From positions 341,744,001 through 341,808,000 of the forward strand of contig CM126204.1 in the NCBI GenBank assembly GCA_052327205.1: a stretch of DNA of 64,000 nucleotides, given 5' to 3'. The position numbers were made by a program, and so were the translations under genes. Source of the DNA: Somniosus microcephalus. Taxonomy: Eukaryota. This document shows, piece after piece, positions 43,956 through 46,607 of the stretch. The notes under the pieces were generated by a model, which saw only the letters and a program-made list of their open reading frames with translations, did not search any database and was not told where the DNA came from. Position 1 is the stretch's first letter. The number at the start of each line of letters is the position of its first letter.

Positions 43956-46607
43956 ATGCCTAAGCATGGTAACATCAACAACTTCGATGCCGAGGTGGAA
44001 GATTGGGCCACGTATGTAGAACGTATCGAGGTATATTGTGAGGCCAATAAAATAGAAGATGATGATAAAGCTATAACCTTGCTAAACTCGATGGGCGCGA
44101 AGACATACGGGTTATTGAAGCATCTTCTATCACCAGCTAAACCGGCGGATCAGACTTTCGATAATATTGTTGCTGTTCTGAAGGATCACTTGAACCCCAC
44201 ACCGCTGATGTTGGCGGAACGATTCAAATTTTATGCGAGAACGCAACGGAAAGAAGAAAGCAACGCGGAATACTTGGTCGAACTGCGTAGACTAGCGAAA
44301 TACTGCCAGTTTGGAGGAAATCTGACAAAGGCATTGCGAGACAAGTTCGTGTGCAGGCTGTCGAAGGAAGGAACGCAAAAGCGACTACTCGAAGAGAACG
44401 ACCTTACACTTGAGAGGGCTGTCCTTATTGCAGCATCGCACGAAGCCGCAGCGAAAGGAACTGCGGAAATGCAGCTAAAGGCAGCGGTACTCAGTGTGGA
44501 TCAAATTACTTCGGGTACAACGAAATGTTATCGTTGTGGGAAGACAACACACGACCAGAACCAATGCTTGTTTAAAAACCAGGAATGTAGAAAATGTGGC
44601 AAACTGGGTCACATAGCTAAAGTATGCCGGTCAGGAAAGAAGACCAACAACCAAAAAAAGCCATCACAGGGAAAGTACAACAAAGTACACAAGGTGGCTG
44701 AGAAGAGTTCAGACGAACAGAATTCGGATTCAGACCCAAACGGCCAGGAACTGGGTAGTCTGAGAATTCACAATGTGAGTAAGAAAGCTGACCTACAAAC
44801 TATCTGGGTCATGCTAAAAATAGCCGGAGTCCAAGTGAAAATGGAGTTGGACACTGGATCAGCCCTATCAGTCATAAATCGAAGGGATTACAACCGGCTA
44901 TTCTCACATATACCCTTGAGAGATACCAAGTTCGTATTGCAGACATACATGGGGCATAAAGTGTACCCCATGGGGAAGATAAGAGTCAAGGTGAGAGACA
45001 GGGGCAAAGAACACCCAGGAATGGACTTATATGTACTACCTGAGGGAGGACCACCACTTCTAGGACGGGAGTGGATCAAGAAAATAGACATGGAATGGCA
45101 CTACCTAAAAGCAATAACGAGTGAGGACTCGGTGCAGACAATCAGCTCAGACTCTGAAACGGATGACGATGAGACCAGCCCAAATATGAAAGACAAGTCT
45201 AAAATGAACTTGCTGACTGAGGTTAGAAAAACGAAGGCGTGCATAAAGGCTTATGCTCCAGAGGAGAACAAAGTTTCAGAACAGAATTCCACTGAACAAC
45301 AACAACATAGTTTGACAGAGAATTCTGAGTCTGTCCAGTTTACAGACATATACATTACTGAGGAACACCGAGCTCAAACTCAACTTTATTTCAAATTACA
45401 ACAGCAATTAGAACAATTGAGTTGCCATCTTGAGCAAGAGACAACAGCAATGAAAAAGTTCTTGGACACAGAGTGGGAGAATCTGGAAAGACAACAGAAG
45501 CAGCTGGGGGAGGAAATGGAGCAGGAGCACACAAACTGTCTGCGCGAGGAGGCCAAACGAATCAAAGCTGATTCGGTCTCTGAAGGTGCGTGCTCTAATC
45601 TAGTGGAGCAAGATGTTCAGCAACTGAAGGCGCTTGTTAGCAGGTTGCAGGCAGAAAAGGCTGATTTGGTCGCCATGAATTCCGAGCTCCTACTGAAGTC
45701 GGGTGCAGCATCACCGGACGATTCATTTGTGGAAATTCGAATGGTGGAGGCTGCGGATGATGGCGAAGTAGAAGCAGCAAAGGGACCCCAGTGCAAGGTT
45801 CTAAACAGCCCTGCAGCTAATGGGAAATGGATGATGGCAGAAGAGTTAACAGCCAGCCAACTCCTCCAGGGCAAGGTTATAAACAGCCCTGTAGTTAATG
45901 GAAAAGGGATGATGGCAGAAGAGTTAACAGTCAGCCAACTCATTCATATGCTGAGGGATAAAACTCTAAAATGGGAAAAACTTAAATACGAGCCTCAATC
46001 TTCAAAGGGAAGGGAGCTCTCAAAAGTCATTGGAAGAGCTGAGGTGGCAACCCAGACTGAGAAGTCTGCAGCAGAACAGCCCTTGGATGCCAAAAGTACG
46101 CTGACGCACGGAAATGTAGAACAACAGAATACTGAAACAGCTACTTCAGTAGAGGGATTGAATAGTCCGATCAATCAATCTCCGAATGAAGTTGAAGTAT
46201 TGAAATCACAAATGAGGTCATTAGTAAAAGACTTGCAGGAAGCCCAGAAAAAGCGGGATGAATCTGAACGCATGATGAAGTCTCTTCAGGACAGATGTCG
46301 GGATTTGGAACAAAAGTCGGCTAACGTCCAGCTGGGTAAGGAGGAAATAGAAGACCCTCTCGCTGGCCTAGCTCAGGACGACACCGAATATTACCATGAT
46401 CTGTTGAGTGGCACTGAATATTACGAGGACCTGGTCTGCCCAGCTTGTGCCGAGAACTCCCAAAGTGCCGAAATCAGGATGAATCACTTAAAGTCTAAGG
46501 AACATAGGGAGATGGTGGCGTTACAGCTGGCAGCTGACAATGGAGCTCCGAGAGTCTCCAAGAAGCAAAAAAAGGAAAAGACGAAGCAGAAGATGATAAC
46601 CATCTGA
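43956..46607 (+). CDS. Gag (two CCHC knuckles)-aspartic protease fused in frame to STK10/SLK-like coiled coil, optineurin fragment (LIR) and DNAJC21-like zinc finger; 883 aa from ATG
   Basis: [14 protein letters not shown] / [114 protein letters not shown]. Confidence 0.88.

Follow-up and report, generated by a model that had tools for sequence, protein, structure and literature searches.

LTR retrotransposons are known to take up host RNA. The accessible text on LTR-mediated retrocopies (Tan et al. 2016, PMC5131818; maize Bs1 is included as cited there) describes elements whose internal genes have been replaced by host mRNA at microsimilar joints. These retrocopies are partial, multi-gene, often in frame and can be copied again, and among the older animal cases 14 of 21 have loss-of-function changes. 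In mouse, Dong et al. (2016, PMC4897178) describe circRFWD2 circular RNA pseudogenes that share a reversed exon joint, are flanked by LTRs and occur in 33-42 copies; in the part of that paper available to us the mechanism is left unexplained. Plant TR-GAG elements, going by the available sections of PMC4350172, are still active LTR elements, non-autonomous, whose single frame encodes Gag. In IAP I-delta-1/IAP and other trans-complemented pairs, as cited in the accessible part of PMC10924933, the defective element outnumbers its helper and its own product acts in cis. LTR-mediated capture, multi-gene chimeras, circular RNA retrocopies and Gag-only elements are already in print.

The family described here, from the shark Somniosus microcephalus, shares features with all of these systems. 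Compared with the retrocopies in the accessible text of PMC5131818, it adds thousands of copies, serial nesting, and measured selection on Gag-protease and on the reading frame. Compared with circRFWD2, as far as the available text of PMC4897178 goes, the shark circle is copied through exactly one lap, lies in frame between protease and integrase tail, and is the backbone for later captures. Unlike TR-GAG elements as presented in the available part of PMC4350172, the shark element keeps its protease and a long host-derived in-frame tail, and it does so in a vertebrate. A literature search, in which subscription journals were thinly covered and repeat databases lay outside the scope, found no report of this family, of an optineurin capture, or of serial in-frame nesting on such a scale. 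In contrast to I-delta-1, the fusion partner here is host cargo and not a truncated Pol. The I-delta-1 study itself reportedly found that the defective element outnumbers its helper, with a cis effect of its own translation product.

The DNA analysed, here called the window, is a stretch of 64,000 nucleotides (contig CM126204.1, positions 341,744,001 to 341,808,000 of the forward strand). On its plus strand it contains a non-autonomous Ty3/gypsy LTR retrotransposon with paired LTRs, target-site duplication, primer site and purine tract. By sequence comparison, a 5 bp target-site duplication (left 42382..42386, right 47264-47268) encloses a 5' LTR of 256 nt with TG...CA ends (42387..42642) and a 3' LTR (47008..47263) that differs from it at 2 positions. 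Inside these lie a primer-binding-site-like motif (42644..42653), which we take to be a tRNA-Ser match, a repeat-rich 5' leader that varies in length from copy to copy (42654..43955), and a purine-rich tract ahead of the 3' LTR (46991..47007). A single 883-codon open frame (43956-46607) encodes Gag, protease, STK10, OPTN and a zinc finger. Gag (43956..44795) is under purifying selection, has K02A2.6-like relatives, and carries two CCHC knuckles (about 44526-44627), a trait of the Mag clade. It is followed by an aspartic protease found by domain search (44796..45110), whose DTG is intact; this triplet is present in 68 of 70 copies, the other 2 being unreadable. Then come two STK10 pieces with an in-frame deletion between them, a remnant of the circular RNA insert (45119..45571, 87-90% identical to host exons), an OPTN mRNA segment of six host exons whose 5' end has a 9-nt microhomology with STK10 (45563..46348), and a DNAJC21-like C2H2 zinc finger piece (46413..46520; E 0.018, 61-68% in sister copies). 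The host DNAJC21 gene was not located in genome searches, which gave one locus plus element copies. STK10 exons that belong on the other side of the back-splice (46579..46790) lie mostly beyond the stop codon at 46605-46607. A domain search of the 883-codon frame found no reverse transcriptase (RT), RNaseH or integrase. Elsewhere in the window there are two further gypsy elements with pol and paired LTRs, at 28349-33680 (+) and 35757-40388 (-), the latter with identical 200-nt LTR stretches.

The family is large. A 28-nt pattern across the STK10/OPTN joint, allowing up to 2 mismatches, is found at 4,074 places in the genome, and a control gave 0. LTR pairs could be located in 46 of 48 copies examined and differ by 0.9-1.6% per group (0.4% in one single-copy group), which indicates a recent spread. 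A pattern for protease followed by anything except STK10 matched 18 places, and 5 of the 10 that were fetched run on into RT. Four pol-bearing copies were examined at full length; their pol is in interrupted frames, and they are 92-95% identical to a form with STK10 only over most of LTR-Gag-protease. In one of them Pfam confirmed RT, RNaseH and integrase, in the order protease-RT-RNaseH-integrase. The available part of PMC2577118 gives this order and two CCHC knuckles for Mag-like Ty3/gypsy elements, and the shark family resembles them further in that no envelope is seen; two knuckles also occur in Micropia/Mdg3, and the likeness to Mag is one of knuckles and gene order. The STK10-only form, found at no fewer than 47 places among the top matches listed, is the apparent founder, in which RT-RNaseH-integrase was replaced by the STK10 lap.

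The STK10-only form carries STK10 amino acids 385-704 and, after them, 290-388. Aligned to the host gene on contig C8, the insert starts within a large exon, runs through three more exons, jumps exactly from the last donor to the first acceptor, and returns to its start. The lap closes with a 14 nt overlap; the insert is 1,259 nt long, and the five exons of the circle sum to 1,245 nt, or 415 codons. Eight copies of this form are 98.5-99.2% identical to the five host exons. The exact back-splice joint is present in all 15 sister copies tested and deleted in the window copy. The donor of a later exon is joined exactly to the acceptor of an earlier one, a signature that marks the insert as a circular-RNA-derived retrocopy (compare the available text of PMC4897178), and on exon order and length the insert is shown to correspond to exactly one lap of STK10 circular RNA. 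In host STK10 (L097), the third circle exon shows a GC-AG intron within the back-spliced block, and a match to an STK10/SLK-like kinase exon lies within an 823-codon open frame at G000:C8:2305443-2305643 (-).

The OPTN capture from spliced host mRNA into the Gag-protease frame is confirmed. Among protein-database matches, the best for frame residues 537-798 are shark optineurins (63% identity, E 4e-74), and the top PDB matches are two optineurin chains over the leucine zipper (45606..45701; E 0.0046 and 0.014). The nearest proteins also indicate that the host is a shark. The host OPTN gene is on contig C17 of the genome (G000), and six of its coding exons are intronless in the element at 79-95% DNA identity. 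The preliminary description of this locus had deduced mRNA capture from a segment that spans several exons, and alignment to the host gene bears this out: of the five exon joints, three are exact in the window copy and two have small in-frame deletions, while in sister copy L079 all five are exact. Intronless host exons replace internal genes with microhomology at the joints, which makes this an LTR-mediated retrocopy. The segment had been placed at 45603..46319; the capture holds and its true span is larger, 45563-46348. Collinearity with human OPTN likewise stands, with the proposed amino acids 140-285 giving way to mammalian amino acids of about 137-336 (manatee protein). OPTN is in the same frame as Gag, as had been claimed, and is not joined to it directly: the protease and two pieces of STK10 separate them. 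The LC3-interacting region (LIR/FIR motif, 45714..45737) was correctly read in the window copy, with its core FVEI at 45726-45737 and the serine equivalent to S177 at 45723-45725; it has the aromatic-x-x-aliphatic core, the preceding acids and the serine. The loss of the N-terminal TBK1-binding region and of the UBAN and zinc finger also agrees with the protein alignment, in which host amino acids 1-130 and 385 onward are missing. An optineurin-type autophagy receptor combines a LIR with ubiquitin-binding and TBK1-binding domains, and the captured part lacks this combination. In human OPTN the leucine zipper is the RAB8A-binding region (PMC11864684). The OPTN part of the window copy also contains a 78-nt (26-codon) tandem duplication (45788..45943), seen by self-comparison. 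In host OPTN itself, two single extra bases in A-runs (L040:6780-6795 and 7346-7365) break the frame in the assembly; they are probably assembly slips, which would also raise counts of broken copies.

In later forms STK10 is shortened in frame, and new pieces are nested within it at short shared sequences, with microhomologies of 4-9 nt at the capture joints. All captured pieces are read in their own host frame. OPTN, the DNAJC21-like piece and other coiled-coil pieces would have been captured after STK10, an order that is read from the nesting and not from a rooted test. In five of 20 copies fetched from a list of matches (L077, L080, L082, L089 and L094), a 230-aa myosin-tail-like coil, presumably CGNL1-like, replaces OPTN while the back-splice joint is kept. 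In L091 (minus strand, about 2280-3240), whose LTRs are 99.6% alike, further coiled-coil pieces, which we assume to be EVI5-like and ANKRD24/RAI14-like, replace the OPTN zipper and LIR in a 1,080-codon frame. Atlas and PDB searches put no name on these other coiled-coil cargos. Short STK10-only forms with in-frame deletions (L199, L200, L187-L189, L194) are likely intermediates that preceded OPTN capture. Two copies 4.4 kb apart (L117 and L118, G000:C1:10.17 Mb) are possibly a tandem pair with a common LTR, and at L052:2474-3216 (+) an unrelated RNaseH/integrase-like frame starts directly after the 3' LTR.

To measure selection, variants present in at least 3 copies, most of them passed on by replication, were counted as shared and the rest as private. 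In 70 copies, dN/dS over Gag, nucleocapsid and protease is 0.25 for shared against 1.02 for private variants (p 4e-7), and over the cargo 0.77 against 1.09 (p 0.085); a set of 77 largely different copies gave the same pattern. In the spreading lineages Gag and protease are thus under purifying selection, with dN/dS of about 0.25-0.35. All seven cargo indels common to 3 or more of 132 copies are in frame, compared with 6 of 30 private ones (p 1.7e-4); the test rests on these seven shared indel classes, and some private indels of 1 nt may be slips in the assembly (leaving these out gives 6 of 22 in frame). Among control indels in the leader, 6 of 15 are a multiple of three. The dN/dS and indel results indicate that the element depends on its Gag-protease and on an open frame, and mostly not on the sequence of its cargo. 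The leucine zipper has shared dN/dS values of 0.28, 0.49 and 0.48 in three sample sets, a trend to constraint that is significant in none, and a large clade that keeps the LIR phenylalanine has two prolines at the start of the zipper. Purifying selection on OPTN exon 4 (zipper and LIR, dN/dS about 0.3) was considered and set aside, as the signal came from window-like copies and weakened with wider sampling; the copies also suggest recombination among subfamilies. A stop codon seemingly shared by 34 copies was also rejected: it lies where OPTN is duplicated and most likely arose from misalignment, because such copies show an open frame elsewhere in the analysis. A second apparent shared stop, in 6 copies, is at a CpG codon.

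The preliminary description proposed that the element keeps the LIR so as to use or decoy autophagy, and this did not survive comparison across copies. Among all 100 listed exact STK10/OPTN joints, which are on contig 1 and are not a genome-wide sample, the first LIR position is Phe in 69, Ile in 13, Ser in 12 and Leu in 6. Phe is therefore lost in 31, and the full motif is intact in the window copy and in 68 of the 100. The neighbouring positions are almost fixed (Ser 99, Glu 100, Ile 100). Divergence is 0.6-1.4% inside the clades that lack Phe and 4.6-8.5% between clades; these tight groups, several of them amplified, therefore expanded once Phe was gone. Sister forms with no LIR at all have also amplified, with similar LTR ages, and shared dN/dS in the LIR zone, which has few sites, is 1.35, with no sign of purifying selection. 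The motif is not conserved across spreading copies, which leaves the proposed autophagy role unsupported; the LIR is dispensable for spread and looks like a passenger, not a tool. An earlier count in which Phe was lost in 30 of 70 copies and its codon ranked first for repeated change used a partly hand-picked set that overstated the loss, and has been superseded. Among copies picked for similarity to the window, 60 of 64 have FVEI. According to the available text of PMC7946963, the human OPTN motif binds ATG8 proteins and FIP200, binding of FIP200 is reduced or lost with F178Q, and Ile or Leu is allowed by the FIR consensus. Copies with an intact LIR would likely bind ATG8 proteins, judging from their residues.

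Taken as a whole, the family is probably best explained as a non-autonomous gypsy element in which pol was exchanged for host RNA, with selection on Gag-protease and frame and with the LIR as passenger. The RT-RNaseH-integrase region would have been replaced by template switching in the particle at short shared sequences (compare the accessible part of PMC5131818), initially by one full lap of STK10 circular RNA, with OPTN, DNAJC21-like and other coils nested later. Each copy would make its own Gag-protease, which would help to package its own RNA, a cis benefit like that of I-delta-1 (as cited in the available part of PMC10924933); RT and integrase would be supplied in trans by the rare pol-bearing parent, with which LTRs are shared, and the dispersed young copies fit such a supply. 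The cargo may be a stop-free filler that lets translation continue close to the 3' LTR, for RNA stability or translation-coupled packaging, and it is interchangeable among sister forms. Against this passenger account stand the zipper trend and the near-fixed LIR neighbours, and the predominance of coiled coils in the cargo may mean a choice at the protein level. A rival account is selection for a generic coiled-coil tail from any source gene, which would stand in for Pol in oligomerisation or spacing. STK10 PKK, OPTN, the myosin-tail-like piece and further coils do fill one slot, and cargo dN/dS is slightly below 1 (0.77); however, a large part of the STK10 cargo looks non-helical on inspection, changes that break helices have become fixed, and purine-rich coiled-coil codons may merely offer microhomology. 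Selection for such a tail is considered unlikely.

That a working LIR, or a RAB8A-binding zipper, is kept to use or decoy autophagy or trafficking is very improbable, and the LIR version is largely refuted: the 68 intact copies, 1,002 exact matches to a 30-mer spanning LIR and exon joint, zipper dN/dS near 0.3-0.5 and RNA reads over the OPTN region have to be set against the Phe losses, the shared dN/dS in the LIR zone, the amplified LIR-free forms with similar LTR ages, the two prolines at the zipper start in a large Phe-keeping clade, and the absent TBK1- and ubiquitin-binding parts. Since the Phe codon is second among the 242 codons of OPTN in the number of repeated amino-acid changes, with 12 steps (on leave-one-codon-out trees; the top codon, with 13, is a CpG Arg), the LIR may even be a liability. 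The element would then have acquired an autophagy tag on its Gag by accident, marking the fusion for selective autophagy, and lineages would have repeatedly removed the key Phe to escape degradation. The four derived codons include none that is silent, and where the 5-nt context of the Phe codon recurs in the insert, changes are found in 1 and 6 of 70 copies versus 25 at the codon itself, the sample being enriched in copies that lost Phe. In yeast, Ty1 particles are cleared by selective autophagy (accessible text of PMC3524628). Ile and Leu variants would still fit the FIP200-binding consensus (PMC7946963, available part). Yet Phe is kept in 69 of the 100 copies, large young clades included; recombination inflates step counts at every codon, and the tail of the distribution is smooth; the LIR lies behind the protease and is probably cut off or buried in the particle; and the Ser clade matches neither motif. 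We regard this escape as doubtful. If it were true, the thousands of copies would document in nature how autophagy restricts a mobile element, on a circular-RNA endless-frame landing pad for further capture.

Under the preferred passenger account, helper, founder form, intermediates and host genes are found in one genome, which shows how an LTR element captures circular RNA. Selection can be measured here on a non-autonomous element that exchanges host exons yet preserves an uninterrupted frame and a Gag-protease of its own, which amounts to exon shuffling in thousands of copies. With Phe, Ile, Ser and Leu forms of the motif occurring naturally, the action of autophagy on vertebrate retrotransposon proteins can be tested directly. 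In these sharks the element copies will also interfere with the annotation of OPTN and STK10 and with counts of their expression. No Gag-fusion protein was found among the database matches (best 120 of 628, 71 of 71, and best 150), and the protein collection searched has no entry identical to the 883-aa protein. Sequencing runs under three organism labels contain the stretch according to a run index, in which no RNA run is listed among them. Two RNA runs of one organism label have reads over all 30 bins; coverage is by bin and not by joint-spanning reads, and host OPTN reads can contribute in exon 4. With a 92% threshold, reads still cover the bins where host OPTN identity is no higher than 79-86%, an indication of transcripts from the element. 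In run X7 the first mates are mostly on the minus strand, as for sense RNA, with a depth at the LIR bin of 158 versus 10. Many of the reads differ from the window, which implies that other subfamilies dominate the RNA.
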